Shown: piece by piece, positions 2,291 to 24,731 of the stretch
Layout of the letters: every line of letters starts with the position of its first letter
Numbering within the stretch: position 1 is the first letter of the stretch
Origin: Candidatus Omnitrophota bacterium
GTDB lineage: Bacteria; Omnitrophota; Omnitrophia; Omnitrophales; Aquincolibacteriaceae
Direction: 5' to 3'
Assembly: GCA_035368605.1 (NCBI GenBank)
Contig: DAOSLF010000001.1
Coordinates: 22,877 to 86,876, forward strand
DNA: 64,000 bases
Program-made: the position numbers and the translations under genes
The notes under the pieces: model-generated
The model's database searches: none
What the model saw: the letters and a program-made list of their open reading frames with translations, nothing else
Told to the model about the DNA's origin: nothing

Positions 2291-2322
2291 CGTTTTTACA
2301 TCCGAAGTGATGGGAGGCAGGT

Positions 2323-2530
2323 CATGAAAGAATTTTTCGTCGGTCTGCTCGCGATCATCGTTGTTCTCCTCCTCGCCGGCGTGGGGGTTCTCCTTTTTCC
2401 GTTCTTTCTTCTTCTCGGGATCGCGCTGAGATTTTTGGTCCTTGTTCTGGTCGGCCTTTTCGCGATCTGGCTCGTCGGCAAGCTTGTTTTGCTCCTGATC
2501 GATTCCCTGAAGAAGAAAGACCAAACGTAA
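2323..2530 (+). CDS. small hydrophobic membrane protein (two predicted TM helices), hypothetical
   Basis: ATG at 2323 is preceded by GGGAGG. 68 aa, almost entirely L/V/I/G/F with a KKKDQT tail. The longer track ORF from 2249 would overlap the tRNA. Confidence 0.45.
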
Positions 2531-2540
2531 GGAAGACCGC

Positions 2541-2792
2541 ATGGAAAGACTGATGACCGCCCGGCAGGTCAGTGAATTGCTCGAGGTCAATCCGTCCACG
2601 GTCTACCAATGGGTCCACCTCGGACTGATCCCGTACGTCAAGCTCGGGAAATGCGTCCGCTTCAAGAAGATCGAACTGTTCCGCTGGATCGACAAGAACC
2701 TGCGCCACGAAAAGGTCTCGTTCAAAACCGTCGAAAAAGTTCTTCGCAAACATCCTTCTGCCCGCCAGAAGGAATTCTCCGACCTGGAATGA
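2541..2792 (+). CDS. excisionase/AlpA-family helix-turn-helix DNA-binding protein
   Basis: MERLMTARQVSELLEVNPSTVYQWVHLGLIPYVKLGKCVRFKKIELFRWI matches the Xis/MerR-type HTH_17 pattern (L-t-x-xE-A-xLL-vs-xTvyrw-x-G-lP-x-kvG). Its stop overlaps the downstream OST start (ATGA at 2789-2792). Confidence 0.65.
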   Translation: MERLMTARQVSELLEVNPSTVYQWVHLGLIPYVKLGKCVRFKKIELFRWIDKNLRHEKVSFKTVEKVLRKHPSARQKEFSDLE

Positions 2793-5356
2793 AGACGGAC
2801 CTCTCCGGTGTTCTGAACAGACTTTCCGGGGCGGTGCCGGCCCGCATCGAGTTCCGGAGCCCCGTGACCGCTATCCTCCTGATGGTCCTCTGCCTCGGGG
2901 CCAATATCTATGTCCGTCTCTTTCCCGCGCATCTGCCCGGTCTCCGTCAGGAGGCGCTCCTGAACGTTGTGAACGCCGAACTGAAAGAGGGTGCCGGAAA
3001 CTATACCGGCGAGGCGAGGCTCAAGGGGCTTGCGGTTTCCGCCGCGGCACAAACCGGCATTACCCGGGATCCGACCGCTTTTTCCAGGAAGGTTGACGCA
3101 GAGCTCACGAAACTGAAAGGCCCGCTGCAGGATGAGAGTGGTTTGACCTATCTCCTGGAAAGCGATCCCTATGCCTGGGCGGTCTGGACGGAGAATGTCC
3201 TGCGGTATGGTCATCCGGGGAACCGGATCGTGAACGGGAAAAGTCATGACAGCCTGATGCTCGCCCCCCGCGGCCTCGAGGTCTTTCATTTTACATTCCT
3301 TTTTTATCTGACGGCGCACCTGTACAAGGCTGTTTCGCTTTTCAGCGGTGCGGTTTCTTTCCAGTCGTTCCTCTTTTATGTGCCGGTTTTTTATTCCGCT
3401 TGTTTTCTCGCGCTTTTTTATCTTTTCGTGAGGCGGTGGTCGACCGATCTCGCCGCGTTCTTTGCCGTGATGCTCGCGGGGTTTACGGGGGAAATGGTCC
3501 AGCGTGGCTGCGCGGGATGGTATGACTTCGATATGCTGAGCCTTTCCTTCGCGGTCCTTGTCGGCGGGTGTCTCGCGGAGGCCTTTCGGGACGGGGGATG
3601 GAAACGGATGATCCTTGGCACGGTGGCGGCGGCGTTTTTTGAAGGCGTCTACGCGATGACGTGGCTCGGCTGGTGGTTCATGCTTGTTGTCGCGGCCGGT
3701 TTTTTTATCTCGTCCGCCACGCTCGCGGTCATTGCAGGTCCCCAAAAGCTCAGTGCGGTGCTGCGTTCTCTTTTTTTCCATTTGTCCGCGGCGGTCCTCT
3801 TTTATGTCCTTTCGTTCCTGTTCGCCGGATGGATGACCGGTGTCGATATGATCGAACGGGTCGGGTGGCTCAGGTCGTTTCTCAGGTTCAATACGGCCCT
3901 GGGGGCGGACATCTGGCCGAATGTTTTCTACACGATCAGCGAACTCGGCGCCCTCTCGCTCCGGGGGATCGCAAGCCGTTTTTACGGGGTCATTCTTTTC
4001 TCGGCCATCCTTGTGTCTGTTGCGTTTGCGGTTGTCAGGGAATGGCGCTCGGACCGCCGGTCGGTGGTCCTGATCCTGCTTTCGTGGTTTGCTTTCATGT
4101 TTTTCGCTTCTTTTAGAGGAAATCGCTTCGTCCTTTACCTTGCGGTTCCGGCGTTCGCTTTCTTCGGGATCGCGCTTGCGGAATATTTGCCGGGCTGGAT
4201 CAAGGATCGTCTCGGCGGTATCTTGCGGATTCTTGCCTTTGGCGGTTATGTCGTTCTGCTCGGTTTTCTCGTCCGGACGGGATTTGCCTCCGGGATCGCG
4301 GTGGCCGAAAGCATCCGGCCCGTCATGAATGACGCATGGTATGAGGCCCTGAGCCGGATCGAACGTGAGACACCCAGGGATGCTATCATCAATTCCTGGT
4401 GGGATTTCGGGAGCTGGTTCCGCTATTACGGGAAACGCGGCGTGATCTTTGACGGTCAGTCTCAGGGCGGCCAGTTGGCGTACTGGATGGCAAGGGCGAT
4501 GCTTGAGACCGATGAAGAGAAGGCGGTCCGTATCCTTCGCATGTTGGACCTTTCGGGAACCGGCGCGTTTTTCCTTATCCAGGAACGGATTCGGGATCCC
4601 TACCGGAGCAAGACTGTTCTCGACAGCCTGTTGGCCTCGGATGAGGCAACTGCCCGTGAGATCCTCGCGTCGGAAGGTTTCGAGGCGGAAGGCGCGAAGA
4701 AGGTCCTGGATGATCTCTTTCGGCTTCCGGCGCCGGCGTATTTTGTCGTCGAAGGATCCATGGTCGGCAAGATGGCGAGTATCTCGTTCATTGGAAACTG
4801 GGACGCAAGGAAACTCATGATCGAACGCATGGCGGGTGAACCGGCGGAAGCTGTCCGGGGGCGGCTGACGTCCCTGTTCGGTCTCGCTCCGGAGGAGGCG
4901 GAAAGACTCTATCAAAGGCAGACGGAGACACTGAAAGGCGTTGATCGCAATGAAAGCATCTCCACGAGATCGGATTTCTTTTCAAGTCCCGTCAAGGGGG
5001 AGAAGGGGAAATCCCTCATCCGTTTTGACAATGGCGTTGTGTTCGACCCGGTTTCGCCGGAGGTGCTTTATTACTCGGAGGCCGCTTCGAAATTCAGGGT
5101 TCCGAAACGGGTCGTCTTGTGGCGTGAGGGTGTCCGCAGTGAAATGAAAAATGAAGGCGGTGGCGACGATGCGACGGTCCTGATCGCGGCGAACGGAGAG
5201 GAATACCGCGCGGTTCTCGCGAACGATGACCTGATCGATTCTCTTTTTGTGAGGCTTTATCTTCTCGGCGGTTCAGGCCTGAAACACTTCAATCCGTTCC
5301 ACTCGGATGACGAGTACAAGATTTATATTTACGAGATCGATTGGGGTGCTTCATGA
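2789..5356 (+). CDS. oligosaccharyltransferase of the STT3/AglB/PglB family (GT-C fold, N-glycosylation OST)
   Basis: 855 aa. The N-terminal half has many hydrophobic helices; the C-terminal half is a soluble domain. It contains the diagnostic WWDFG (INSWWDFGSWFRYYG), a TIxE loop motif (FYTISELGALS) and a DPY motif in the first external loop (ESDPYAWAVW, compare FDPYFNYR of eukaryotic STT3). Start MKTDLSGV at ATG 2789. Confidence 0.85.
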   Translation: MKTDLSGVLNRLSGAVPARIEFRSPVTAILLMVLCLGANIYVRLFPAHLPGLRQEALLNVVNAELKEGAGNYTGEARLKGLAVSAAAQTGITRDPTAFSRKVDAELTKLKGPLQDESGLTYLLESDPYAWAVWTENVLRYGHPGNRIVNGKSHDSLMLAPRGLEVFHFTFLFYLTAHLYKAVSLFSGAVSFQSFLFYVPVFYSACFLALFYLFVRRWSTDLAAFFAVMLAGFTGEMVQRGCAGWYDFDMLSLSFAVLVGGCLAEAFRDGGWKRMILGTVAAAFFEGVYAMTWLGWWFMLVVAAGFFISSATLAVIAGPQKLSAVLRSLFFHLSAAVLFYVLSFLFAGWMTGVDMIERVGWLRSFLRFNTALGADIWPNVFYTISELGALSLRGIASRFYGVILFSAILVSVAFAVVREWRSDRRSVVLILLSWFAFMFFASFRGNRFVLYLAVPAFAFFGIALAEYLPGWIKDRLGGILRILAFGGYVVLLGFLVRTGFASGIAVAESIRPVMNDAWYEALSRIERETPRDAIINSWWDFGSWFRYYGKRGVIFDGQSQGGQLAYWMARAMLETDEEKAVRILRMLDLSGTGAFFLIQERIRDPYRSKTVLDSLLASDEATAREILASEGFEAEGAKKVLDDLFRLPAPAYFVVEGSMVGKMASISFIGNWDARKLMIERMAGEPAEAVRGRLTSLFGLAPEEAERLYQRQTETLKGVDRNESISTRSDFFSSPVKGEKGKSLIRFDNGVVFDPVSPEVLYYSEAASKFRVPKRVVLWREGVRSEMKNEGGGDDATVLIAANGEEYRAVLANDDLIDSLFVRLYLLGGSGLKHFNPFHSDDEYKIYIYEIDWGAS

Positions 5357-6492
5357 GTGCCCATGATATTGAAGTTTCGGTGGTGATTCCGTGCCTGAAT
5401 GAGAGCGGGAGCGTCGGGACCTGTGTCGAAAAGGCGCGCGCTTATTTTTCGGCCAGGGGTATGGCGGGTGAGGTTATCGTGGTGGATAACGGTTCCTCCG
5501 ACGATTCGGTCGTGAAAGCACTGAATGCCGGCGCGCATGTCGTTCATGAGAAGGTTCGGGGGTATGGGGCCTCCTGCCTGCGGGGATTCCGGGAAGCTCG
5601 TGGTAAATATCTCGTCATGGGCGATGCTGACAATACCTACGATTTTGCTTCCCTGGACCCTTTCCTGGATCCCTTGCGAAGGGGGGCAGATGTTGTGATG
5701 GGGTCCCGTTTCCGGGGAAAGATCCATCGCGGAGCTATGCCGTGGACGAACCGCTATCTTGGCAATCCCGTCCTGACGGGGTTGTACCGCCTTTTCTTCC
5801 GCACGCGGCTCACGGACATCCACTGTGGCATTCGGAGTTTGACAAAAGATGCTTTTCTGAAGCTGAACCTGCACTGTCTCGGGATGGAATTCGCGTCTGA
5901 GATGGTTCTGGAAGCGCTGCAGAAGAAACTGAAGATCGTGGAAACACCGGTTGATTATTTTCCCCGCGAGGGCCGCTCAAAACTGGAGCCCATGAAAGAC
6001 GCCTGGCGGCATCTCCGCTTCATGCTTCTTTTCTGCCCGGACTGGCTTTATTTTGTCCCGGGTTTGTGTGTCGGGGGATCCGGATTTCTGGTGCTGCTCG
6101 CTCTTATCGGCGGGCCGGTCCATTTCCTGGGGCACGCCTGGGATATTCATATGCTGGTCTTTGCGGCATTCCTGAGCATTCTTGGCTATCAGATCCTCAA
6201 CGTTGGTCTCTACGCCAAGCTTTTTGCCGTTAAACAGGGATATCTGGAGAGTGATAGTACGCTGAACTGGTTCGCGCGGCACCTCCGTCTTGAGACCGGA
6301 GTTGTTTTGGGCCTGATATTGTTCGGCGCAGGACTTGTTCTGAATCTCTGGATCTTTGCTGAATGGTGGCAAAATGCTTTCGGGCCGCTCTATCGTATCC
6401 GCGAATCGGTCGCGGGGATGACGTTCATGACACTGGGCCTCCAGACGGTTTTTTCCTCTTTTTTTCTCAGCCTCATGAATCTCCGCCGCTGA
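5353..6492 (+). CDS. GT2 polyprenyl-phosphate glycosyltransferase (Dpm1/AglD/ArnC/GtrB-like) with C-terminal TM helices
   Basis: N-terminal GT-A domain with VVIPCLNE, VVDNGSSDDS and a DADNTYD (DxD) motif, followed by 2-4 hydrophobic helices. Start ATG 5353 overlaps the OST stop (ATGA). Confidence 0.8.
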   Translation: MSAHDIEVSVVIPCLNESGSVGTCVEKARAYFSARGMAGEVIVVDNGSSDDSVVKALNAGAHVVHEKVRGYGASCLRGFREARGKYLVMGDADNTYDFASLDPFLDPLRRGADVVMGSRFRGKIHRGAMPWTNRYLGNPVLTGLYRLFFRTRLTDIHCGIRSLTKDAFLKLNLHCLGMEFASEMVLEALQKKLKIVETPVDYFPREGRSKLEPMKDAWRHLRFMLLFCPDWLYFVPGLCVGGSGFLVLLALIGGPVHFLGHAWDIHMLVFAAFLSILGYQILNVGLYAKLFAVKQGYLESDSTLNWFARHLRLETGVVLGLILFGAGLVLNLWIFAEWWQNAFGPLYRIRESVAGMTFMTLGLQTVFSSFFLSLMNLRR

Positions 6493-6494
6493 AG

Positions 6495-7475
6495 ATGCAG
6501 AATTCAGTAACCAATCCCGCAGTCCCGAAAGCGTCCAGGGTTTCGATTGTGATCGCTGCGCGAAATGCCGAAAGGACGCTCGCTAAATGTCTCGATTCGC
6601 TCATGAAGCTCGATTATCCGGATTACGAGGTTATCGTGGTGGACGACGGCTCGACGGATGGAACGCGCGATATTGCGTGTCATTATCCCGGTATCGTCTT
6701 GCTTGGGACTGGTGGCGCAGGACCTGCCGTGGCTCGAAATACAGGTGTCAAGATCGCACGAGGCGAGTTCGTCGCCTTTTTAGATTCGGATTGTTATGTG
6801 CGCCCGGATTGGTTATCCGAGCTCCTTCGGGGGTTTGTTGACGACCGTGTAGCGGGGGTCGGGGGGTGCCAAGAAAGTCCGCATGATGAAGAACCCTTCG
6901 GGCGTGAGGTCCATCGTTTTTTCTCCTGCGCCGGATTCCTCACAAATTATATGCAGCGCGCCGTTGCGACGCGCGAGGTCACGCACAATGCGAGCTGCAA
7001 CGTCATGTACCGGAAGGCGGTCTATCGGGTGCTCGGCGGGTTCGAAGAAGGGTTCTGGCCCGGGGAGGATCTGGAGTTCGACCACAGGGTGCGGACCCGG
7101 GGATATCGTCTGTTTCAGGTGCCGGACGCGATCGTTTATCACTACCGGGCCGACACGATCGAACGGTTCAGGAACATGATGCACCGCTACGGCTGGGCGC
7201 AGGGGATGCTGGCCCGCCGGCACGGCCTGTTCCGTCCTATCCAGTGGGTGCCGGTCCTGATGTTGCTGCTGGCGGTGGGGGGCGGAGCGGGGTTTTTGGT
7301 TTCTCCAACCTGGACCGTGGTGCTGGCGGTTGTTGTTTCGTGGATTGTTTGGGAATGGCTCGGTCGCGATCCCGCGCTGCTGAAACTGTTTGTGAACGCT
7401 CTTTTTTTCTGGAACGCCGGTTTTATGAAAGGGCTGACGGAACGCCGCGAGGGTGAGAGGCGTCCGAATCGGTAA
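6495..7475 (+). CDS. GT2 family glycosyltransferase
   Basis: Start MQNSVTNP at ATG 6495, 2 nt after the previous stop. Motifs SIVIAARN, VIVVDDGSTDGT and FLDSDCYV (DxD), with a C-terminal hydrophobic segment. Confidence 0.8.
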   Translation: MQNSVTNPAVPKASRVSIVIAARNAERTLAKCLDSLMKLDYPDYEVIVVDDGSTDGTRDIACHYPGIVLLGTGGAGPAVARNTGVKIARGEFVAFLDSDCYVRPDWLSELLRGFVDDRVAGVGGCQESPHDEEPFGREVHRFFSCAGFLTNYMQRAVATREVTHNASCNVMYRKAVYRVLGGFEEGFWPGEDLEFDHRVRTRGYRLFQVPDAIVYHYRADTIERFRNMMHRYGWAQGMLARRHGLFRPIQWVPVLMLLLAVGGGAGFLVSPTWTVVLAVVVSWIVWEWLGRDPALLKLFVNALFFWNAGFMKGLTERREGERRPNR

Positions 7476-7517
7476 TGCCCGCGTGTTCTATTGGACGGAT
7501 GGAGAGAGATTCCCTGT

Positions 7518-8723
7518 ATGATGCGGTCTGTTTATCGTGTAGCCGTTAAGTGCTTTGCCTGGGGCATGCTGGGAATCGGGCGGGTGTTGCGGCGCTCCCG
7601 GCCTCGCTACGATTTTGCGACCATCCGGAAGATCCTAATCAATAAGTGTGACCGACTGGGAGACGCGGTCGTGATCTTGCCGCTACTCTTGGAACTTCAA
7701 AAACATTACCAGATCACCGTTTTGACTTCAGAACGGAACGATGAGTTCCTTCGTCGGTTTGTCCCGACGAAAAAGTATATTGCCGAACCGAAATCTTTTC
7801 ACCAAGTCCTGCGGATGCTCTTGAGTGGTTGTGCCGTTTTTTGGGGGAAGAGGGGCTCAAAGGATCCCGACTATGACCTTTACCTTGACTTCAACGGCCT
7901 CAAGGAGCTTGATGTTTTTTTTAAAGTTTGGAAGGATGCTCTTTGTGCACATCATGCCAGTTTCAATATGGGTTTTTGGAACGGGATGCTGGATTATTCA
8001 CATCGGGATTATCCGGTGCTTTTTTCCCGGAGGCCCGTTCTGGATTCTTATGCCCAATTGGTGTGCGAAGCGCTTGGAGTCGAAATTACATTAGCGAGCG
8101 TGGGAGGGGCACACGCTGTTTTTCCGGAGGAAATGCCGCCCGGTGATTTTGTCATCATTAATGTTTCCGGCCATGAACGTTATCGCGGACCGGCGCTGGT
8201 CTTCTATGCGGAGTTGATAAAGGAAATAGCACAGCGGTTGGGATGTTTCATTATGGATGAGCTTGGCGGGACCCATATGCCAGCCATCAAGGAAATGACC
8301 CGGGGAACAGACAATGTCTATTATGCGGAACGGGATTTTTCAATATGGGAGTTGGCCGGGCTTGCTTCCAAGGCCCGGGGCTATCTCGGTGCTGATTCCG
8401 GTATCAGTCATCTGATGGGGGGGCTAACGAATGCGATCGTTTTCTTTGGCGATCAAACAAGTGAAATCTGGCGGCCCTATGTTCCAAGTGGTTATGAAAA
8501 ATGCGAGTATAAGGAAGGGTTTATCCTTGAGAGATCGGTCGATCCGTCCGGTTTTTTGAAGGCTGTTATTTATCAACCCGTGCGCTGCCGGCCCTGTTTC
8601 GATTGGGGATGCCGTCGGCCCGTGTGCGTGGACGCATTTTTAGCTGTTAAGGAGCCATTGATCAACGTGGTGTTAGAGCTTTTCAGATCGTGCGGTGCGA
8701 TCCCGGGAGCGGTGGATTTATGA
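7518..8723 (+). CDS. GT9 family glycosyltransferase (heptosyltransferase-like)
   Basis: KILINKCDRLGDAVVILPLL is the typical GT9 N-terminal motif. The gene is visibly AT-richer than its neighbours. Confidence 0.6.
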   Translation: MMRSVYRVAVKCFAWGMLGIGRVLRRSRPRYDFATIRKILINKCDRLGDAVVILPLLLELQKHYQITVLTSERNDEFLRRFVPTKKYIAEPKSFHQVLRMLLSGCAVFWGKRGSKDPDYDLYLDFNGLKELDVFFKVWKDALCAHHASFNMGFWNGMLDYSHRDYPVLFSRRPVLDSYAQLVCEALGVEITLASVGGAHAVFPEEMPPGDFVIINVSGHERYRGPALVFYAELIKEIAQRLGCFIMDELGGTHMPAIKEMTRGTDNVYYAERDFSIWELAGLASKARGYLGADSGISHLMGGLTNAIVFFGDQTSEIWRPYVPSGYEKCEYKEGFILERSVDPSGFLKAVIYQPVRCRPCFDWGCRRPVCVDAFLAVKEPLINVVLELFRSCGAIPGAVDL

Positions 8724-9853
8724 GAATTGCCGTGGATGCGTTCCCTTTGGTCACCCCGAGGACCGGGTTCGGCCAGTGGGTCCATCATCTGGCGCGCGAA
8801 TGGTCGGGGGAGCGCAGCCAGGAACTTTATTTGTTTAATACGAAGAAACGCCGGATCGACGGATATCCCGGAGCTGTTTTTAATACCCGATATCCGACGA
8901 TCCTGGATCGATCCAGTATTTTTTGGATGACGGTCCGCGGTCGTGCCGAGCTGTCGGATTGTCGCCCCGACGTTTTTTGGGGAAGCCAGGGGTTCCTGCC
9001 ACTGCGGATGCCGGAGGAGGTCGCCAAGGTCATCACGGTCCATGATGCCGTTTATTATGCTTGTCCCGAAACGATGAGCGGCATCACACACTTTACCTAC
9101 CAGACTTTTTTAGAACAGTCGATTCGGAAGGCCGACGCGGTAGTGACGGTTTCCCGAACGATGAAAGAACAACTGGAGGGGATTTTTCTCAAAAGGGAGA
9201 TCCGCCGGGAACTGGATGTGGTTTACCCCGGCGTGGATGATGCCTTTCGATTTACGGAGAAGTCTTTAGCCCGAGAGTGTATCGCAGGGACTTACCGGAT
9301 AACCCGGCCGTATCTGCTTTTTGTCGGGACTTGCGAACCGAGAAAAAATCTTGTCGGATTGATAAGGGCGTTCCGGATTTTTCTTGAAAGAAATCCCTCT
9401 GACCACCAGCTGCTGATCGTGGGCGCCAAGGGGTGGAAGGACGCTCCGATCTATGCCGAGGTGAAACGCCAAGGCGCCGAGGATCGGGTAAGGTTTCTCG
9501 GGTATGTCCCTCAAAAAGACCTTCCCGCTTTTTATTCCGCAGCGGATGCGTTTGTTTTTGTGCCTTTTTATGAAGGATTCGGAATTCCGAACCTGGAAGC
9601 CATGGCTTGCGGCGTTCCGATCATTGCCTCAGATATACCGGTCTTCCGTGAGGTTCTGAACGACGCGGCATTCTTTGTCAGGCCGGAAGACCCGCGGGAC
9701 ATTGCCGACGGGATACAGGCAGTGCTTTTGAATACCGGCTTGCGAAACGACCTTGTCCGGAGGGGGGCGATCCGGGCTCGCGCTTTTTCCTGGCCCCGTT
9801 CTTCCGAAGCGATGCTCGATGTTTTTCGCCGGGTTTTGAAATCTCGCGCGTGA
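8720..9853 (+). CDS. GT4 (glycosyl transferase group 1) glycosyltransferase
   Basis: Start MRIAVDAF overlaps the previous stop (ATGA). C-terminal EGFGIPNLEAMACGVPIIASDIPVFREV is the GT4 EX7E-type motif. Confidence 0.8.
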   Translation: MRIAVDAFPLVTPRTGFGQWVHHLAREWSGERSQELYLFNTKKRRIDGYPGAVFNTRYPTILDRSSIFWMTVRGRAELSDCRPDVFWGSQGFLPLRMPEEVAKVITVHDAVYYACPETMSGITHFTYQTFLEQSIRKADAVVTVSRTMKEQLEGIFLKREIRRELDVVYPGVDDAFRFTEKSLARECIAGTYRITRPYLLFVGTCEPRKNLVGLIRAFRIFLERNPSDHQLLIVGAKGWKDAPIYAEVKRQGAEDRVRFLGYVPQKDLPAFYSAADAFVFVPFYEGFGIPNLEAMACGVPIIASDIPVFREVLNDAAFFVRPEDPRDIADGIQAVLLNTGLRNDLVRRGAIRARAFSWPRSSEAMLDVFRRVLKSRA

Positions 9854-9861
9854 AGAACGAT

Positions 9862-10269
9862 ATGAAAAAGACCATGACTATCACCGCGTTCAACCGGCCG
9901 GGATATCTCGAACAGATGCTGCGCGACGCGGGATCAATGGCGGTCTTGTTTCATGCCGCGATGGTTCGATGGACGGAATCTATCGCGGACCTGCGGGCTG
10001 TTGCTGACCCGGGAAGGATGGGATTGGGCGATCTTGAGGGGGGGGATCTTCGGCGGGGTTCTAAATTATTCGCGCTCCAGCCTCTTTACGCTCGGGCGAC
10101 ACACATCGGTCGGGATCAGGTGACTTACTGTGTCCCGGAGTTTTATGGCATTATTTTTGATGGAATCCGTTTGTGTGAAAGAACGATGCCGGTCCAGTAT
10201 CGCATTTCGCGAAAATGGTCCAACTTGTTCTGGAATGGTCTGCCCCTGGTTTACGATCTGTCGCGATAG
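9862..10269 (+). CDS. hypothetical protein; N-terminus resembles the start of a GT-A glycosyltransferase (possible gene remnant)
   Basis: MKKTMTITAFNRPGYLEQML resembles the xTxxNRPxYL opening of GT2 enzymes, but no DxD follows. No SD is visible. Followed by an AT-rich roughly 400-bp gap. Confidence 0.3.
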   Translation: MKKTMTITAFNRPGYLEQMLRDAGSMAVLFHAAMVRWTESIADLRAVADPGRMGLGDLEGGDLRRGSKLFALQPLYARATHIGRDQVTYCVPEFYGIIFDGIRLCERTMPVQYRISRKWSNLFWNGLPLVYDLSR

Positions 10270-10668
10270 GCTTCTTCAGGCAGATTCTTTTGATGTGTTT
10301 TGGGGAATGAAAGGGGATGTCTCCGGTTACGGGGATGATGATATGTGTCATAAATTAAAATAGATTCACGGAGATTGGTGGGGATTTTATAGCCCCAAGT
10401 TGAAAGTGATGATAGCGGTCCGGAATGAATTATGACCGGCGGTCTTGATGCCTGTATTAAACGAGAAGAATCATGATACTGATAGGGTGTTGTCTACCCG
10501 TGAAATCATGTGGGTTGATTTTCTTGCGGATGCTTTGGAGGACGATGATTTGAAAAAGAAATATTCAGAACCGGGGAAGCGGCGGGCGTATGACTTTCAT
10601 ATCGACAAGATCGTGCCGCAGTGGCTGGAGTGTCTCTCGTGAGATCAGTCCGTTCCGGGGATTCGTTT

Positions 10669-12255
10669 ATGAGGCACTCTTTCAGGTTCATGCTGTCCAG
10701 AGGATTATTTGCTGTTTCGGGTGTGCTATTCTGGTTTGTAGCGGCCCGGTGCTATTCGGTGGAGGCGATCGGTTTGGCATCGGCAGTGATCTCAGCGTCT
10801 TCTCTCATTCTTTTTTTTGCAGGATTGGGAATGGGCCCCGTTTTGGTGCGGTTTTTACCGCGGAGTTCAGAAAAAAAGAAGCTTTTGGCGACTCTTTTTC
10901 TTTTTTCCCTTATCCTGCTCGGTTTGTTGCTGACGGTTTTTATATCTGGCATAAAAAGTTTTCTGCCACAGGCTGCCTCTTTCGACCTCATCTATACCCG
11001 GATCCTCTTCGTCGCATCCGTCATCTCGTTCTTTGTGTTTTACGTACTGGAGGCAGTCCTGGTGGCTTTTAAACGGACCGGTGCGCTTGTCGCGACGGAC
11101 ATCCTGCAGTATTTTCCCCGGATCGTTTTCCTGCCGCTTATGGTCGGGTGGGGAGGGAGCGGTATTTATTTCGCGAATGGTTTGTCCGCGGCCCTCGCGG
11201 TGGTTGCCGGACTTTTTTTTATGCGGGATAAGATGGGCCCCGGGAACGGACAGAGCGGATTCGACCCCGGACTTTTGCGCGAGACGCTGCCCCTTTCGCT
11301 GGTCAATTTTTTCAGTTCTGCCACCCTTTTTTTACCGGGAGTATTAATCCCGCTAGTCATCGTTAGATGGTTTTCCGAACGCGAAGCCGGTTTTTTTTAT
11401 TTGCCGTGGATGATGTTCTCGGTCTACGCATCGTTCCTGGGGTCGGCGACCGGCACTCTTTTGATGAAAGCCTCTCACGGCGAGGACCCGGAACCGCTTT
11501 TTAAAAAAACCGTGGCTGTGACGATTTTTTTGGTTGTCGCAGGAGCCCTTGTTTTTCTACCGTTTGCGCCGGCGATCCTGGGGATCTTTAAAAAGGAATT
11601 TCAATCCGAATCCCTTGTGATCTTGAGGATTCTTTTTTTGTCCATTTTCTTTTTCCCGGTCCACCAGATTTACATCACGCTTTGTAATATCCGCAGGGAC
11701 GTGGTTCGGATCGGGTGGGTGGCTTTCGTTTTTTTAGCGCTGCTTGCGATCTTTTCGATCATTTTGTTTGTCCGCCAGGGTGTCGCGATATTCGCCTGGG
11801 CGTGGTTTTGGGCGAATGTGGTGACGGCAGGGTTTGTGCTATTGCTGGTAACTCTGGACAGGCGGAAGGGTATCCGGAGAAATTTCGACTCATCTCTTGA
11901 GCCGATTGTGTCGAGAGAATATAATAGCCCGGAGGAAAGACAGGGCCGATATCTTTGGTTGGGACGGCAATTCCAAAAAAAGCGGCTTGATTTTCATTGG
12001 AAGAGAAAGTGGAAATCAATGCGATCCAATTTTTTGTCAGAAAAAACTGGATTGGAGAGGTGGCCCATGACAGAACCTCAGCGACATACACTGGTTGCGA
12101 GCGGCGCATTTGTTGTGGTCGGGTGTTTTATCCTTTATCTGGCTCTTTTCGGTCTCCACGTTGTGGATCCCAAGGGGCTGATCCTGATGGTGGGATTCCT
12201 GGCCGCGGTCACGATGATCGCCGCGCAAAAGCGTAAACGCAATCCGTTGCTGTAA
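10669..12255 (+). CDS. Wzx-like polysaccharide/oligosaccharide flippase (MOP superfamily polysaccharide biosynthesis protein)
   Basis: About 12 hydrophobic helices with the typical PST-family organisation (LVRFLPRSSEKKKLL loop). Start ATG 10669. The unusual charged insertion plus extra TM at the C-terminus was not checked. Confidence 0.65.
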   Translation: MRHSFRFMLSRGLFAVSGVLFWFVAARCYSVEAIGLASAVISASSLILFFAGLGMGPVLVRFLPRSSEKKKLLATLFLFSLILLGLLLTVFISGIKSFLPQAASFDLIYTRILFVASVISFFVFYVLEAVLVAFKRTGALVATDILQYFPRIVFLPLMVGWGGSGIYFANGLSAALAVVAGLFFMRDKMGPGNGQSGFDPGLLRETLPLSLVNFFSSATLFLPGVLIPLVIVRWFSEREAGFFYLPWMMFSVYASFLGSATGTLLMKASHGEDPEPLFKKTVAVTIFLVVAGALVFLPFAPAILGIFKKEFQSESLVILRILFLSIFFFPVHQIYITLCNIRRDVVRIGWVAFVFLALLAIFSIILFVRQGVAIFAWAWFWANVVTAGFVLLLVTLDRRKGIRRNFDSSLEPIVSREYNSPEERQGRYLWLGRQFQKKRLDFHWKRKWKSMRSNFLSEKTGLERWPMTEPQRHTLVASGAFVVVGCFILYLALFGLHVVDPKGLILMVGFLAAVTMIAAQKRKRNPLL

Positions 12256-12496
12256 GTCCGGGGATTCGGGTCTGCGGATCCGTTTCTCGTGAAAAAACGG
12301 TTTAAGCGGGTCCCGAGATGCGGATTCCGGTTTCCGGTATTCCTCCTTGTCAAACTCATGCCTCTCCCTTACACTACCGCGGCTGTGAACCCCGTCGGAT
12401 TTTTAACCCGCACTGAGGCGAACGTTTCAGGGAAGAATGGAGTCATGAAATATTCTTTTGAGTTGAATCATTCGGGCCAATGGGAGATTTAACCAG

Positions 12497-13607
12497 GTGA
12501 ACGAAGAAGTTTTCGCCCTCAAAGCAACCCTCCAGGATCTCAAGGACAAACTCCAAGAGATAAGGAGGTATCTTTGACCTCGCCAGCCAGGAGCAGGAAG
12601 TCGAAGCGATAAACCGGAAGATGGCGGCTGCCGATTTCTGGGACTGTCAGTCGGAAGCCCAGACGACCGTCGAACGCCTGAAAATCCTCAAGAAGGTCGT
12701 CGAACCCTGGCATCATGCCGACCGCGCCTGCGCCGATCTTGTCGAGTTTCTCGATATGGTCGATGAAAACCAGATCGAATCCCTGAAAGATCTTGCCGTT
12801 GATGTTCAAAAGGTCCGGCAGGAGGTCGAGAACCTCGAATTCCAGCGTCTTTTCACCGATCCCTTTGATCCGAACAACGCGATTATCAGCATCAACGCCG
12901 GTGCCGGCGGCACCGAGGCCTGCGATTGGGCGCAGATGCTCTTCCGGATGTATACCCGTTATTGCGAACAGCATGATCAAAAGATCCAGATGATCGATCT
13001 GATGGAAGGGGAAGGCGCGGGGATCAAGAGTGCGACCTTTATCGCACAGGGGCCCTACGCGTACGGCTACCTCAAGGCCGAATCCGGCGTGCATCGCCTT
13101 GTCCGAATCTCGCCGTTCGACGCGAACAAACGACGCCACACCTCCTTTGCCTCTGTCGATGTGATCGCGGAGGTTGAGGACACGCCCGAAGTCGAGATCA
13201 AGGAAGCGGATCTCCGGATCGACGCCTATCGCGCGGGAGGCGCCGGTGGCCAGCATGTCAACAAGACCTCGAGCGCGATCCGCATCACGCACATTCCGAC
13301 CGGTATCGTGGTACAATGCCAGAACGAACGTTCCCAGGGACAGAATAAAGCGGTCGCGATGAATGTCCTCCGGGCGCGCCTTTACGAGCGGTACCGGCAG
13401 GAGCAGGAATCCGAACTTGCCAGGAAATACGGCCCCAAGAAAAAGATCGAGTGGGGTTCCCAGATCCGGTCCTATGTGTTCCATCCGTATTCCATGGTGA
13501 AAGATCACCGGACGGACGTCGAGACTTCGAATGTCCAGGCCGTGATGGACGGGGACCTCGATGAATTCATTCACGTCTATCTGAAACAGCACGTGTCAAA
13601 AATCTGA
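12497..13607 (+). CDS. prfB: peptide chain release factor 2 with programmed +1 ribosomal frameshift (join 12497..12574,12576..13607)
   Basis: Frame-0 ORF VNEEVFALKATLQDLKDKLQEIRRYL ends at the in-frame TGA (12575-12577) within AGGAGG TAT CTT TGA C. The +1 frame continues DLASQEQEV... to 13607. SPF motif (RISPFD) and GGQ (RAGGAGGQHVNKT) are present. This parallels E. coli RGYL-UGA-D. Confidence 0.9.
12563..12578 (+). promoter_or_regulatory. prfB autoregulatory +1 frameshift site (internal SD AGGAGG, slippery CTT, UGA-C stop)
   Basis: Sequence AGGAGGTATCTTTGAC matches the conserved RF2 recoding cassette. Confidence 0.85.
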
Positions 13608-13610
13608 GAA

Positions 13611-13640
13611 CCGGGACTCGTCCCCAGGGACGAATCCCGG
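13611..13640. repeat. GC-rich imperfect palindrome CCGGGACTCGTCCCCAGGGACGAATCCCGG (member of the CCGGG(G)ATTCG repeat family), likely terminator-like hairpin after prfB
   Basis: Inverted repeat read directly, 3-33 nt after the prfB stop. Confidence 0.6.
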
Positions 13641-13661
13641 GTGGGTTAAACGGAGGCGGTC

Positions 13662-14462
13662 ATGAAAAAGTTCGCACAACTATTTGTCTTGCTCGTTGGT
13701 TGTTTGGTCTTGTCAGGTTGCCTGACACAGGTTGAGGACGGCCAGGTCGGCGTGAAGATCGATTTCGGAAAGATCCAGGAGCAGCCGCTCGGCGCGGGCT
13801 GGCACTTCTTCGTGCCGGCGGTGACACAGATCGAGATCTGGAACGTCAAGATCCAGGAACTCAAGGAGCTGGCCATGGTGCCGTCTTCGGAAGGTCTGAT
13901 CTCTCAGCTCGATATCTCCATCCTTTATCAGGTCCCCGCAGGCCAGGCGAGCCTTGTCCGTCGCACGATCGGACGCTACTATGTGCAGATCGTGCTCGAG
14001 CCGTATGTCCGTGAAGCGATCCGGAACGTCGCAAGCGGCTACGCGGTGAAGGCCCTCTATAGCGAGGCGGGCCGGAAGGAGATCGGCAAGAACATGCTCG
14101 ATTTCCTGCAAAGCAAGTTGGACGAGAAAGGCATCATCGTGCAGGATGTGCTTCTGCGGGATGTGAAGCTGCCGCCGTCGTTTTCCCAGTCGATCGAGGC
14201 GAAGCTCCGGGCCGAACAGGAGGCCCTCCAGAAGGAGTTCGAATTGCAGAAGGCGAAGAAAGATGCCGAGATCGAGGTTGCGCGCGCGGAAGGTGTCGCG
14301 AAGGCCAACCAGATCATTGGGGATTCCCTCAAGAACAACGAACCGTACCTCCGGTACCTCTGGATCAACAACCTCAAGGAGACGAAGAACAATGTGATCT
14401 ACGTCCCGACCGAGGCGGGGCTGCCGATCCTCGAGGCATCCAGGAAAACAAACACTCAATAA
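13662..14462 (+). CDS. SPFH/band-7 (prohibitin/HflC-like) domain lipoprotein
   Basis: Signal peptide with lipobox LSGC. Coiled-coil AEQEALQKEFELQKAKKDAEIEVARAEG is typical of the SPFH C-terminus. GGAGG RBS precedes the start. Confidence 0.7.
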   Translation: MKKFAQLFVLLVGCLVLSGCLTQVEDGQVGVKIDFGKIQEQPLGAGWHFFVPAVTQIEIWNVKIQELKELAMVPSSEGLISQLDISILYQVPAGQASLVRRTIGRYYVQIVLEPYVREAIRNVASGYAVKALYSEAGRKEIGKNMLDFLQSKLDEKGIIVQDVLLRDVKLPPSFSQSIEAKLRAEQEALQKEFELQKAKKDAEIEVARAEGVAKANQIIGDSLKNNEPYLRYLWINNLKETKNNVIYVPTEAGLPILEASRKTNTQ

Positions 14463-14470
14463 AAAGGAAT

Positions 14471-14498
14471 GGGTCCGGGGATTCGTTCCCGGGACCCG
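14471..14498. repeat. hairpin repeat GGGTCCGGGGATTCGTTCCCGGGACCCG (same family)
   Basis: Imperfect palindrome immediately after the SPFH gene stop. Confidence 0.6.
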
Positions 14499-14559
14499 TG
14501 AATTGCTTTAAAAAACATATCCGAAGGAACCGGCCGCAAGCCCCGATTTTGGAAAAAAT

Positions 14560-17235
14560 ATGATCAATTTCATCCTGAAAAAAATATTCGGAACGCAGAA
14601 CGCAAGAACGTTGAAAACCCTCTGGCCGGTCGTCGCACAGGTGAACGCTTTCGAACCGGAGATCCAGAAGCTTTCGGACGACGCCCTGCGGGCAAAAACG
14701 GATGAGTTCCGGAAAAGGCTCGCCGCCGGCGCGACGATAGATGAGATTCTGCCCGAGGCGTTCGCCGTGGTCCGGGAGGCCTCCAGGCGGACGACGAAGA
14801 TGCGACATTTCGACGTCCAGATTCTCGGCGGTCTTGTGCTCCATAAGGGAAAGATCGCGGAGATGTCGACCGGGGAAGGGAAAACGCTGGTCGCGACGCT
14901 CCCGCTTTATTTGAACGCGCTGGAAGGGAAGGGCGCGCACCTTGTCACAGTGAACGACTATCTGGCTAAACGTGACCGGAACTGGATGGGACCCATCTAC
15001 GAGTTCTTGGGGCTTACCGTTGGCGTCATCCAGCATGACATGCCGCACGAGGAACGCCAGAAGGCCTATGCCTCGGATATCACCTATGGGACGAACAACG
15101 AGTTCGGGTTCGATTACCTGCGCGATAACATGGTTACGAGCCTCGAGGGACGTGTGCAGCGGCCGCTCCATTTTGCGATCGTCGACGAGGTCGACTCGAT
15201 CCTTATCGACGAGGCCCGGACGCCGCTCATCATTTCCGGCCCCGCCGAAGAATCCACGGACAAGTATTACCGGGCCCAGCGAGCCACCCATGTCCTGAAG
15301 GGTTACCGGATCGTCAAGGAAGAGGTCGACCCCGAATGGAAGGCGAAGCTCGAGGAGATCAAGAAGGACTACGATTACATCGTCGATGAAAAGGCGAAGA
15401 CGGTCCGCCTCACGGAATCAGGTGAGGCCAAATCGGCGAAAGCGATGGGGGTCGAGAATATGCACGACTCCGACACCGTGGCGGAACGTCACCACATCAT
15501 CACGGCCATTCGGGCGAAGGAGTTCTTTGAGAAGGACGTTGATTACATCGTCAAGGACGGCGCGATCATCATCGTGGACGAGTTCACGGGCCGCCTGATG
15601 CCCGGCCGCCGCTTCTCGGACGGTCTTCATCAGGCCCTCGAAGCGAAGGAATCGGTCGAGATCAAGCGAGAGAACCAGACGCTCGCGACGATAACGTTCC
15701 AGAACTATTTTCGCATGTACAAGAAACTTGCGGGCATGACCGGTACCGCCGCGACGGAAGCGGTCGAGTTCGACAAGATCTACAAGCTCGATGTTGTCGT
15801 TATCCCGACGAACCGGCCCTGCATCCGCGCCGACCATCACGATTCCGTCTATCGCACCGAGCGCGAGAAGTTCGACGCGGTAGTGCGCGAAGTGGCCGAG
15901 ACGCACAAAGCGGGGCGTCCCGTGCTCGTTGGCACGATCTCCATTGAAAAATCGGAGCAGCTTAGCAAACTCCTCCAGAAGATCAATCTTCCTCACACGG
16001 TCCTGAACGCCAAATACCACGAGAAAGAGGCTGAAATCGTCGCGCAGGCGGGCCAACCCGGTGCCGTCACGATCGCGACGAACATGGCGGGGCGCGGTAC
16101 CGACATTGTGCTTGGTCCCGGCGTCAGGGAAAAGGGCGGTCTCGCGGTGATCGGCACCGAGCGTCACGAGTCGCGTCGCATCGATAACCAGCTGAGAGGG
16201 CGATGCGGGCGGCAGGGGGACCCGGGGACATCGAAGTTCTTCATCTCGCTTGAGGATGAGCTTATGCGGCTTTTCGGTTCCGACCGTATTGCGAGCCTTA
16301 TGCAACGGCTTGGGATGCAAGAGGGCGATGAAATCCAGCATCCTCTTGTCAGCCGCGCGATGGAGACGGCTCAACGGCGCGTCGAGGCGTACAACTTCGA
16401 GATTCGCAAACACCTGCTCGAATATGACGACGTCATGAACCGCCAACGGGAACTTATTTACGGCGAACGCGATCTTGTTCTCAAAGGGACTTACGAGGAA
16501 CTCAAGAAACACATTCTCGACATGTCCGACAACGTTGTAGAGAACCTTCTCCTGACGTATGTGAATCCGGATATCCGCGACGATGAAAAGGACCCCGAGG
16601 GGCTCGTCGCCGCGATGAGGGAGAAGTACGGCGCGGATCTGCGCCAGGCGGTCGATGAGAATATGTACGGGATCGATTCTCTCCAGGCTGAGCTCGAGGA
16701 GAGGGTCCGTGCCATCTACGACGCGCGGGAGAAGGCGTTCGGGATCGAACGGTTTCATTTCCTGGAAAAGTACATCCTTCTGCAGGTGATCGATACGAAA
16801 TGGAAAGAACATCTTTACGCGCTCGACAATCTCCGTGACGGGATCGGTTTGCGGGCCTATGGCCAGCGGGACCCGCTCGTTGAGTACAAGAAAGAAGCGT
16901 TCGATCTTTTCGACGCGATGACCGATGTGATCAAGGATGAGGCGATCGAGCTTCTGTTCCGCGTCCAGGTGGTCCATGAAGAAAAGATGAAAGCCGCGCC
17001 GGAAACGCCGAAAGCCCGGTACCTTCATCCGGATTCCGGTGGTATGAAAAAGACAGCCGAGAAAGTCCATCAACAGGTCGAGCAGGGCATGGAATCCCGC
17101 TTTGCTCCGCGGCAAGGCGCACCCGACCAGAAACCCGAACCGATCCACCGGGAAGGCCCGAAAGTCGGAAGAAATGACCCCTGTCCCTGCGGAAGCGGCA
17201 AAAAATTCAAAAAGTGCTGCGGAGGCAATGAATAA
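14560..17235 (+). CDS. secA: preprotein translocase ATPase SecA
   Basis: Start [19 protein letters not shown]. Walker [19 protein letters not shown]-like helicase motifs. C-terminal zinc-binding [14 protein letters not shown]. Confidence 0.95.
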
Positions 17236-22242: not shown

Positions 22243-22329
22243 AGGCCGAGAGAATAGCAAAGAACACCGGAAAGCTCAATTTAATTCCCCGTGGCCGGTA
22301 AAACAAATTCGGGTAAAAAAGGGAAAGTC

Positions 22330-22338
22330 TGTTATACT
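22330..22338 (+). promoter_or_regulatory. extended -10 element TGtTATACT placed 6 nt upstream of ATG (predicts a leaderless transcript for the radical SAM gene)
   Basis: TCTGTTATACTTCCGCA-ATG. The same TATACTTCCG motif recurs at 59474 and 63192. Confidence 0.5.
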
Positions 22339-22344
22339 TCCGCA

Positions 22345-23946: not shown

Positions 23947-24029
23947 AAGATGCGGGATTGTCTCGGGATTGTCGAGGACCCGGATCCGCGGGCGAACCGG
24001 CCGAATGCTCCTCTCTTATAAAAAGATGC

Positions 24030-24059
24030 TTGGGAGCTAAAAAGTCCCTGTGTTATAAT
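24030..24059 (+). promoter_or_regulatory. strong candidate promoter: -35 TTGGGA, 18-nt spacer with TG, -10 TATAAT (TGtTATAATTCCG)
   Basis: Read directly in the rSAM-methyltransferase intergenic region. Confidence 0.55.
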
Positions 24060-24095
24060 TCCGAACCCTTGAACAGGGCAGGGACCATTTCTATT

Positions 24096-24731
24096 GTGGA
24101 ATCGCTCTCAAATACACTTCGGACATACCAGCGAAAACTGTTGGATACGTTAGTCAGGTGTCATTTTCGTCCGACGCTCGAAGCGAGGGCGGAATCATTC
24201 GTCAGGCTCTTTGAAACGTTTCTCCCGAAAGGGAGCCGGATTCTGGACCTCGGCGGCGGCTGGGGGTTCTATAGCGAACCGCTTGCCCGGCGCGGGCACG
24301 ATTCGCTCGTTCTTGATGTCGTAAAGCCGGGATATCAAAAGGCACCGGTTGTCATTTACGACGGGAGCAAGATCCCGTTCGGGGACAAAAGCTTTGATGT
24401 AACCCTCCTTGTGACCATGTTACATCATGTGCCGGACCCGGAGGCGCTGATGCGGGAGGTGACGCGCGTGACGCGCTCGCGGGTGGTCGTGGTCGAGGAT
24501 CTTTATCATCATGGAGCGGGACGTTTCTGGACCATCCTTCGGGACCGGTTGCTCAATATGGAGTTCGTGGAACATCCGCATCAGTTCCGGACCCACGGGG
24601 ATTGGCTTCATTTTTTTTGTAGTAAGGGGTTCCGGCTTGAGAAGTTCGCGCGGGTCTATACTTGGCTCGCGGGATTCCGTATTCTGAACGGTGTTTATGT
24701 TTGGGAGTGTGAACCATCGCTCCGCCATTGA
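24096..24731 (+). CDS. class I SAM-dependent methyltransferase
   Basis: Motif I ILDLGGGWGF and motif post-I VLDVV. The start is uncertain; the in-frame GTG at 24096 is the first start downstream of the promoter. Confidence 0.65.
   Translation: MESLSNTLRTYQRKLLDTLVRCHFRPTLEARAESFVRLFETFLPKGSRILDLGGGWGFYSEPLARRGHDSLVLDVVKPGYQKAPVVIYDGSKIPFGDKSFDVTLLVTMLHHVPDPEALMREVTRVTRSRVVVVEDLYHHGAGRFWTILRDRLLNMEFVEHPHQFRTHGDWLHFFCSKGFRLEKFARVYTWLAGFRILNGVYVWECEPSLRH

Follow-up and report, generated by a model that had tools for sequence, protein, structure and literature searches.

A predicted N-glycosylation locus of archaeal type in an uncultured Omnitrophota bacterium

Does a bacterium of the phylum Omnitrophota carry the genes for attaching sugar chains to protein asparagines, and, if so, from where might they have come? 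The question is raised by one tightly packed gene string on the + strand (positions 2324–12255) of a 64-kb stretch of DNA, referred to here as the window, from a Candidatus Omnitrophica metagenome-assembled genome. It encodes a helix-turn-helix (HTH) protein, an STT3-family oligosaccharyltransferase (OST), a Dpm1/AglJ-like polyprenyl-phosphate GT2, a second GT2, a marginally GT9-like protein, a GT4, a truncated GT2 remnant and a divergent Wzx-like flippase candidate. The original prediction, that an OST shares an operon with a Dpm1-like glycosyltransferase, a GT2, a GT9, a GT4 and a Wzx-type flippase, is upheld, with the genes where it placed them and all on the + strand, whereas its GT9 and Wzx assignments rest on weak or transitive evidence. 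The ATGA start/stop overlaps at 2789, 5353 and 8720 and the 2-nt gap at 6493–6494 were read directly from the sequence, and a further GTGA overlap is present at 9850.

Marking the left boundary of the locus is a tRNA-His gene (GTG; 2216–2291, +), detected with ARAGORN, which is context and not part of the pathway. Downstream of it lies a small hydrophobic ORF of 68 amino acids (2324–2530, +), which starts at ATG 2324 and not at 2323 as originally given; it is called as a gene in four assemblies, has no Pfam family recorded, and its membership in the system is uncertain. The next gene (2541–2792, +) encodes an HTH_17/excisionase-family DNA-binding protein (Pfam HTH_17, 50.9 bits; TIGR01764, 41.2 bits, both above cutoff). 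Its stop overlaps the OST start, making it a possible regulator of the operon, although homologues occur in only 2 of 35 long Omnitrophota-type loci.

The large membrane protein (2789–5356, +; 855 amino acids) is an STT3/AglB/PglB-family OST (GT66), and not ArnT or PMT, the alternative that would have refuted the original prediction. It exceeds the Pfam gathering thresholds for both the STT3 N-terminal membrane domain (PF02516, 65.4 bits against a cutoff of 24.5, residues 115–468) and the STT3/PglB/AglB core domain (PF21436, 31.6 bits against a cutoff of 23). In profile alignments, D126 in EL1 aligns with the D of STT3A ‘EFDPY’, D246-x-D248 (within W-Y-D-F-D-M-L) with STT3A ‘YDNE’, and T382-I-S-E385 of EL5 and N-R446-F with ‘TIAE’ and ‘NRF’ of AfAglB; the WWDxG motif is present as W537-W538-D539-F-G541. 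Across 145 relatives, D126, E385, R446, W538 and G541 are invariant, D246 is kept in 141, and D248 and D539 are each kept in 142; of the motif residues, only T382, I383 and W537 are conserved in fewer than 141. The motif completing the +2 Ser/Thr pocket is atypical, the candidate being M658-V-G-K661-M-A-S-I665, in which M occurs in 120, K in 127 and I or W in 130 of the 145 relatives; it resembles a hybrid of the DK and MI motifs, but HMM alignments to solved OSTs stop before this region, after a helical insertion of about 60 residues. A predicted structure (pLDDT 92.8) matches STT3B, AglB and PglB best, ahead of ArnT and PMT, the top 19 Foldseek hits in the PDB are all N-OSTs, and the C-terminal domain matches OST C-terminal domains specifically.

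Overlapping the OST stop is the start of the Dpm1/AglJ-like GT2 (5353–6492, +), in which a catalytic domain (Pfam GT2, 82.3 bits) is followed by C-terminal transmembrane helices (PF26629 GT2_TM_C; hydrophobic segments at residues 231–339). Its best PDB hit is Pyrococcus furiosus dolichol-phosphate mannose synthase (DPMS; E = 1e-13), followed by ArnC (5e-9), over residues 7–289. The best NCBIfam hit is AglJ (TIGR04182), the initiating dolichyl-phosphate hexosyltransferase, at 148.6 bits, below the equivalog cutoff of 325; orthologues beside other Omnitrophota OSTs score 154–218 bits. The protein is thus AglJ-like, not a demonstrated AglJ.

Further glycosyltransferases follow. The second GT2 (6495–7475, +; Pfam GT2, 125.7 bits) is a presumed elongating enzyme, with MftF-like (160.7 bits) and AglG-like (53.7 bits) NCBIfam hits that are both below cutoff; among the related loci fetched for comparison (numbered with the prefix L), orthologues are found in L008 and L023 (51–59% identity) and L012 (36%). 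The protein at 7518–8723 (+; 401 amino acids), originally called a GT9, resembles that family only marginally: neither it nor two homologues has a Pfam hit (GT9, PF01075), and the only signals are heptosyltransferase hits in NCBIfam (E = 0.003–0.05) and an hhalign probability of 36% against a GT9 pair, over the N-terminal region only. It is better described as a putative GT-B glycosyltransferase of an undescribed family with a C-terminal Cys-rich motif (C-R-x-C-F-D-x-G-C), with homologues in L001 (55%), L035 (39%) and L059 (37%) that are always beside an OST. The gene at 8720–9853 (+) encodes a GT4 (Glycos_transf_1, PF00534, 130.1 bits against a cutoff of 26.4; Glyco_transf_4, 40.3 bits). The ORF at 9850–10269 (+; 139 amino acids), absent from the original prediction, has no Pfam hit itself but is 45% identical to a 288-residue protein at the same position in L023 that hits Pfam GT2 at 30.5 bits (cutoff 23.3), and is a truncated GT2 remnant, probably non-functional.

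The last gene (about 10669–12255, +; start codon at 10621, 10669, 10690 or 10831) encodes a divergent Wzx/MOP-type flippase candidate with many hydrophobic segments and a C-terminal extension of about 120 amino acids. It has no Pfam or NCBIfam hit itself, and the assignment derives from its homologues (33–67% identity), of which one carries Polysacc_synt and is named an oligosaccharide flippase; three of six family members scanned hit PF01943 (best E = 4.2e-7), and the pairwise E value to the Polysacc_synt protein of L001 is 7e-5. A terminator-like hairpin (12262–12281, +) found by consensus scan is a plausible operon end, although weakly supported, as the number of such sites in the region is not above the shuffled expectation.

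The OST belongs to a large Omnitrophota family, unpublished as far as the literature searched shows. An exhaustive HMM search found 1121 cluster representatives at E ≤ 1e-30, of which every named member of the 800–890-residue group is from Omnitrophota and every named member of the 900–1190-residue group is from Woesearchaeota, Nanoarchaeota or DPANN. The nearest relatives outside the phylum are DPANN archaeal AglBs, and the archaeal or eukaryote-like features noted originally are more strongly supported than the sequence alone could show. An OST followed directly by a Dpm1-like GT2 is shared by both groups, this GT2 being the next gene in 28 of 49 Omnitrophota-type loci (26 with the transmembrane extension, 2 short) and in 11 of 13 DPANN-type loci; the GT2 of the window is 30–33% identical to those following DPANN AglB (E = 2e-24 and 7e-18). 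Monophyly of the Omnitrophota clade is poorly supported, the exact bipartition appearing in 9 of 40 neighbour-joining bootstraps, and as the tree has no outgroup, the direction of transfer, from archaea to bacteria, is inferred from AglB being near-universal in Archaea.

In agreement with the original prediction, no initiating phosphoglycosyltransferase family (Bac_transf or Glycos_transf_4) is recorded on any called gene of the window. No canonical motif of such enzymes was found in 99 fetched sequences, although this search had no positive control, Pfam was run on only part of the neighbouring genes, and an enzyme encoded elsewhere in the genome could not be excluded.

Taken together, these data suggest that the locus is probably a functional N-linked protein glycosylation operon of archaeal ancestry, with enzymatic activity, glycan structure, lipid carrier and targets inferred. 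In the proposed mechanism, the AglJ/Dpm1-like GT2 loads the first sugar onto polyprenyl monophosphate on the cytoplasmic face, the second GT2, the GT9-like protein and the GT4 extend it to a short oligosaccharide, the Wzx-like protein flips the lipid-linked glycan to the periplasmic face, and the OST transfers it en bloc to Asn in N-X-S/T sequons of exported proteins. That the GT2 initiates the glycan, implying a monophosphate carrier as in Euryarchaeota, which assemble N-glycans on dolichol monophosphate (PMC11407970), is more tentative than the rest, as the protein is equally compatible with a Dpm1/GtrB/ArnC-type donor synthase.

Type IV pilin-like proteins are the lead as targets. Of 42 Omnitrophota-type loci, 12 have prepilin-motif ORFs within 3 kb upstream of the OST on the same strand, supported by Pfam N_methyl hits, compared with 0 of 11 DPANN loci. 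These ORFs carry 98 sequons against 43.2 expected from own-composition shuffles, and five of the proteins have 5–7 sequons, which no shuffle out of 500 reached. The window itself has no prepilin-motif ORF, and the lead comes from related loci only.

The alternative that survives best, although we consider it unlikely, is N-glycosylation with a conventional diphosphate donor, as used by PglB and eukaryotic STT3 (PMC11407970). A phosphoglycosyltransferase encoded elsewhere (WecA/MraY-like or PglC-like) would start the glycan on undecaprenyl phosphate, the second GT2, GT9-like protein and GT4 would extend it, and Wzx and the OST would act as above. The Dpm1-like GT2 would then make only polyprenyl-P-monosaccharide, to be flipped and used on the periplasmic side by a GT-C of PMT_2 type to decorate the glycan, as with AglD/AglS in Haloferax or Dpm1 with ALG3/9/12 in eukaryotes. 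Consistent with this, a PMT_2 GT-C is present in 16 of 35 longer Omnitrophota-type loci, typically in the order OST, GT2 with transmembrane region, PMT_2, which is the classical synthase–consumer pairing and argues that the product of the GT2 feeds a second GT-C rather than starting the OST donor; one PMT_2 protein hits Agl23 weakly, and the best PDB hits of the GT2, DPMS and ArnC, are both donor synthases. However, the window has no PMT_2 gene and no second GT-C, the pair conserved across DPANN and Omnitrophota is OST plus GT2 with no other GT-C in the DPANN cassettes, and no phosphoglycosyltransferase was seen within the limits of the searches described above.

Less probable still is that the locus builds a surface polysaccharide or LPS-like glycan, the STT3 homologue transferring it to a non-protein acceptor or mainly hydrolysing the lipid-linked donor, an activity that PglB may also show in releasing free oligosaccharides. 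A mix of GT2, GT4, GT9-like and Wzx genes is typical of polysaccharide and LPS-core loci, and some related loci carry Wzm/Wzt-type ABC transporter genes. Against this stand the conservation among the relatives of the peptide-binding WWDxG motif and the following candidate M-xx-K-xxx-I/W helix, the OST-specific match of the C-terminal domain, the absence of a Wzy polymerase or WaaL-type ligase from the locus, and the sequon-rich pilin-like genes of related loci. A recently acquired or decaying, no longer functional island at tRNA-His is very unlikely, as, despite the adjacent tRNA and excisionase-family genes, the truncated GT2, the slightly lower GC of some genes (0.50–0.51 against flanks of 0.57–0.59) and the frequent location of the OST next to leuCD in relatives, there is no integrase and no att-like repeat of the tRNA of 12 nt or more in 2292–16000, all other genes are intact with overlapping start and stop codons, catalytic residues are intact, and an identical OST was recovered from several independent metagenomes.

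Bacterial N-linked glycosylation by an STT3-type enzyme has been characterized essentially only in Campylobacterota and a few Desulfovibrionia. The family described here, from a different phylum, does not appear in the literature searched, and two recent Omnitrophota genome surveys do not mention glycosylation. If active, the locus would add an independent archaea-to-bacteria transfer of the OST, this time between two groups of ultrasmall organisms, offer a testable case for a monophosphate-donor pathway in a bacterium, point to N-glycosylated type IV pilins as a surface feature of these epibionts, and supply a diverse set of single-subunit OSTs for glycoengineering. With a conventional donor it would still be a new phylum-level occurrence with unusual gene partners, namely the Dpm1-like GT2, PMT_2 GT-C proteins and B12-radical SAM enzymes. 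In a further, speculative scenario, which is possible but doubtful, Omnitrophota acquired a two-gene core of AglB and an AglJ-like enzyme from DPANN archaea and run a euryarchaeal-style pathway with a monophosphate-linked donor and no need for a phosphoglycosyltransferase, to our knowledge the first described in Bacteria, to N-glycosylate type IV pilin-like proteins, the appendages thought to mediate attachment of these nanobacteria to host cells.

Among known systems, similarity to eukaryotic STT3, which works with Dpm1 and lumenal GT-C enzymes (ALG3/9/12, PMT), is remote (E about 1e-10 with a profile); the enzyme here is single-subunit, and no Alg7, Alg13 or Alg14 homologues are nearby. With PglB of the Campylobacter jejuni/lari pgl locus it shares being a bacterial single-subunit N-OST, a close predicted fold (Foldseek E = 5.8e-23; TM-score 0.68 normalized to PglB) and GT4 enzymes in the same operon. 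However, there is no PglC, no bacillosamine gene and no PglK ABC flippase in the window, the PglB equivalog (NF050801) scores 34.6 bits against a cutoff of 1300, the EL1 motif is E-x-D-P-Y as in STT3 and AglB, and the candidate motif in the helix after WWD, which resembles a hybrid, carries Lys, as in DK-type motifs.

In the Haloferax volcanii Agl pathway (AglJ, AglG, AglI, AglE and AglB, plus AglD and AglS), and probably in the Methanococcus AglK/AglC/AglB pathway, a Dpm1-family GT2 charges dolichyl monophosphate with the linking sugar, soluble or peripheral glycosyltransferases extend it and a single-subunit AglB transfers it to Asn, with no phosphoglycosyltransferase needed (carrier chemistry, PMC11407970). 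The GT-C that follows the GT2 in many relatives recalls AglD/AglS. Here the host is a bacterium, the lipid would presumably be an unsaturated polyprenol rather than dolichol, and the GT9-like, GT4 and Wzx-like proteins are not Agl orthologues. The OST is only remotely related to the euryarchaeal AglBs with solved structures (profile E = 7.6e-9 to AfAglB) and scores 30.3 bits against a cutoff of 450 for the archaeosortase-associated archaeal STT3 (TIGR04154).

Another close system is the uncharacterized DPANN cassette of geranylgeranyl reductase, AglB, GT2 (220 amino acids), DUF2304 and GT9. Its OSTs are longer, with N-terminal extensions and, in some, PPIase domains; the reductase gene, absent from the Omnitrophota locus, lies upstream, and there are no pilin genes. 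Its GT2 lacks the fused transmembrane region and is followed by a separate DUF2304 membrane protein, which may represent a split version of the fused form. The cassette nevertheless holds the closest OST relatives outside Omnitrophota, at 24–29% identity over the full length, C-terminal domain included, with the same Dpm1-like GT2 directly after the OST and often a GT9 downstream.

Between tRNA-His (2216–2291) and a release-factor gene (12621–13607), the + strand carries a compact string of genes. At the start of the string are a 68-aa hydrophobic ORF (2324–2530), for which the precomputed record shows no family, and an HTH_17/excisionase-type protein (2541–2792). These are followed by an 855-aa membrane protein (2789–5356), a 379-aa GT2 with C-terminal hydrophobic helices (5353–6492), a 326-aa GT2 (6495–7475), a 401-aa protein without any Pfam match (7518–8723), a GT4 (8720–9853) and a 139-aa ORF (9850–10269). 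After a 399-bp spacer, a multi-TM protein of about 528 aa (about 10669–12255) follows. The ATGA overlaps at 2789, 5353 and 8720 and the 2-nt gap at 6493–6494 are exactly as in the original prediction, and a further GTGA overlap is found at 9850; the locus start of 2323 in that prediction is one base early, because the ATG is at 2324. Promoter and terminator scans gave no more sites than the shuffled expectation.

The large membrane protein is an STT3-family OST, passing the Pfam gathering scores for STT3 (65.4 bits against 24.5) and for the STT3/PglB/AglB core domain (31.6 bits against 23). In profile alignments to solved OSTs, L-E-S-D126-P-Y aligns with the STT3A ‘EFDPY’ motif, W-Y-D246-F-D248 with STT3A ‘YDNE’, and T-I-S-E385 and N-R446-F with AfAglB ‘TIAE’ and ‘NRF’, respectively, and W537-W-D-F-G541 is the WWDxG motif. 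Across an alignment of 145 relatives, D126, E385, R446, W538 and G541 are invariant, and D246, D248 and D539 are kept in 141–142 sequences. The helix that should carry the DK or MI motif reads M658-xx-K661-xxx-I665; this atypical hybrid is conserved in the family, although an HMM alignment of the C-terminal region to solved OSTs did not reach it. An AlphaFold model built on 79 sequences is confident (pLDDT of 92.8 and pTM of 0.90), whereas a first model from 8 sequences was mediocre (pLDDT of 64). The 19 best Foldseek matches of the 79-sequence model in the PDB are all N-OSTs (PglB at 5.8e-23, AfAglB at 1.6e-15, and STT3 at 1e-15 to 1e-12), with DPY19, AftA and ArnT following at 6e-10 to 2e-5.

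Directly after the OST is a GT2 of the polyprenyl-phosphate glycosyltransferase type (5353–6492), composed of the GT2 domain and GT2_TM_C, with the best PDB hit to Pyrococcus dolichol-phosphate mannose synthase, followed by ArnC. Its best NCBIfam hit is AglJ, albeit at 148.6 bits and below the cutoff of 325. The second GT2 (6495–7475) and the GT4 (8720–9853) are unambiguous. The assignment of the protein at 7518–8723 as a GT9, as originally predicted, is the weak point: neither it nor two homologues hit Pfam, and only marginal heptosyltransferase signals exist, with hhalign of the GT9-like pair against a GT9 pair giving only 36% probability. It is nevertheless a conserved OST neighbour, present at 37–55% identity in three of the fetched loci (designated by L numbers) that carry related OSTs, L001, L035 and L059. 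The ORF at 9850–10269 is a truncated remnant of a 288-aa GT2 found intact at the same position in locus L023. The last gene, originally taken for a Wzx-type flippase, has no family hit itself but belongs to a small family in which 3 of 6 scanned members hit Polysacc_synt and one homologue is annotated as an oligosaccharide flippase.

No phosphoglycosyltransferase family is recorded on any called gene across the 64-kb window, in agreement with the original prediction. At window 58139–59425 (− strand) and 61570–62238 (+ strand), a canonical Polysacc_synt (Wzx) flippase gene lies next to a GH1 glycosidase, and an IS200/IS605-type Y1 transposase lies further on; the genome therefore has a conventional flippase besides the Wzx-like candidate. 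Located at 22345–30064 (+ strand) is a lipid or polyketide-like cluster comprising B12 radical SAM with DUF4070, a methyltransferase, a FabA-like dehydratase, an ACP, a phosphopantetheinyl transferase, two ketosynthases and an epimerase/3-beta-HSD, with a GT2 on the opposite strand at 30578–31741; no record was found for the product of 22291–23946. An alpha-oxoamine synthase-type aminotransferase (588–1904, − strand) sits next to a ketoreductase, the short-chain dehydrogenase just beyond the window start (7006–7794 of L003, which covers the contig upstream). As this pair resembles serine palmitoyltransferase plus ketosphinganine reductase, sphingolipid-like synthesis is possible. Further upstream on the same contig (L003 1–1312) is the end of a giant 5549-aa ORF with weak GT2, inositol monophosphatase and cytidylate kinase hits, very long ORFs being a known Omnitrophota trait. 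A McsA-like UVR protein, McsB arginine kinase and ClpC-type ATPase are encoded together at 36129–42130 (+ strand), a protein-arginine phosphorylation and degradation module best known from Firmicutes.

The OST is identical to a protein of a ‘Candidatus Omnitrophica bacterium’ MAG (GCA_022705965.1), and the same protein was recovered from several sludge and digester metagenomes. A word-indexed search found only 8 close relatives, and only 7 loci were found in 185,579 GTDB species, but an exhaustive HMM search yielded 1121 cluster representatives at E<=1e-30, showing that the small number was a sensitivity artefact. The top 150 fall into two groups: proteins of 800–890 aa, in which every named member is Omnitrophota, and proteins of 900–1190 aa, in which every named member is Woesearchaeota, Nanoarchaeota or DPANN. 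An NJ tree groups 59 of the 66 sequences shorter than 900 aa, including all 5 named Omnitrophota, but with the exact bipartition in only 9 of 40 bootstraps and no outgroup, it resolves neither monophyly nor direction of transfer.

The neighbourhood was analysed in 58 non-redundant Omnitrophota-type loci and 16 DPANN-type loci, a sample biased towards the best matches. The gene directly after the OST is a Dpm1-like GT2 in 28 of 49 Omnitrophota-type loci and in 11 of 13 DPANN-type loci, and the window GT2 is 30–33% identical to the DPANN GT2. The recurrent DPANN order (L017 2459–9610, L018 2394–7924, and L084–L097) is a geranylgeranyl-reductase family gene, AglB (900–1190 aa), a 220-aa GT2, a DUF2304 membrane protein of about 110 aa, and GT9; GT2 plus DUF2304 may be a split form of the fused GT2+TM protein of Omnitrophota. 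Some DPANN-type contigs (L091 and L098) carry two or three tandem OST paralogues. Among 35 Omnitrophota-type loci with at least 5 kb downstream, a PMT_2 GT-C is present in 16, usually right after the GT2, further GT2s in 19 and B12-radical SAM genes in 18. These B12-binding radical SAM enzymes, embedded together with SAM methyltransferases (L001 14636–16078, L008 15257–16687 and 17644–19164, L023 5953–7407, and others), suggest unusual, possibly C-methylated, sugars. The window lacks PMT_2 and radical SAM genes near the OST. A motif search for canonical phosphoglycosyltransferase signatures, which had no positive control in the data, found none in any of the 99 sequences.

In several relatives (L001, L002 and L008), the OST sits directly beside leuC/leuD, whereas in the window it sits after tRNA-His and an excisionase-type HTH gene, and leuCD is absent from the 64 kb; the locus has moved within the phylum.

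A lead on the targets comes from the related loci. In 12 of 42 Omnitrophota-type loci with enough upstream sequence, one to five ORFs with a prepilin (class III) signal motif lie within 3 kb upstream of the OST on the same strand, whereas DPANN-type loci have none in 11. These type IV pilin-like genes, with the prepilin motif GFTL(I/L)E, occur in runs immediately upstream of the OST (for example, L039 8134–9364, L042 7193–9880, L053 3241–5360 and L041 309–2500), and Pfam N_methyl and Pilin_GH hits support the pilin assignment. The 34 ORFs hold 98 N-X-S/T sequons, against 43.2 expected from shuffles of their own composition. One recurring protein of about 115–120 aa has 5–7 sequons in several loci, a number that no shuffle out of 500 reached, and this group includes a conserved C-terminal N-(I/V)-T-W sequon. 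These proteins are candidate N-glycosylation substrates, although the window itself has no prepilin-motif ORF. In one OST subclade (L051, L061, L063, L065 and L077; for example, L065 6508–14621), the downstream genes are an Rce1-like CPBP protease, a PPIase, RcpC/CpaB, a secretin and a T2SSE/ParA-type ATPase, that is, a Tad or type II secretion-like pilus assembly set.

The locus is likely to be a functional N-glycosylation operon, which is the best-supported reading. How the donor is started is less certain. The OST–GT2 pair conserved across two domains, the AglJ-like best hits and the lack of any phosphoglycosyltransferase in the window annotation and the motif search fit the euryarchaeal route, in which a Dpm1-family enzyme puts the linking sugar on the lipid monophosphate (PMC11407970). 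We hold this monophosphate route only tentatively, at slightly less than even odds. The frequent GT2–PMT_2 pairing in relatives fits instead the classical arrangement of a donor synthase plus a periplasmic GT-C, and a phosphoglycosyltransferase may also lie elsewhere in the genome; overall, we consider a conventional donor unlikely but possible. An integrated island at tRNA-His is not supported, as there is no integrase, no att-like repeat of 12 nt or more, and only a mild GC dip.

N-OST systems themselves are well known, and proteins of this family are auto-annotated as ‘STT3 domain-containing’. In the literature searched, no paper links Omnitrophota with STT3 or oligosaccharyltransferase, and two Omnitrophota genome surveys do not mention glycosylation. 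Transfer from archaea to bacteria is inferred from AglB being near-universal in Archaea, and it also fits the published view that bacterial PglB came from archaea at least twice (PMC4973528). The window OST is 24–29% identical to the DPANN proteins over its full length; by contrast, it matches solved PglB, AfAglB and STT3 only at profile E-values of 1e-4 to 1e-10.
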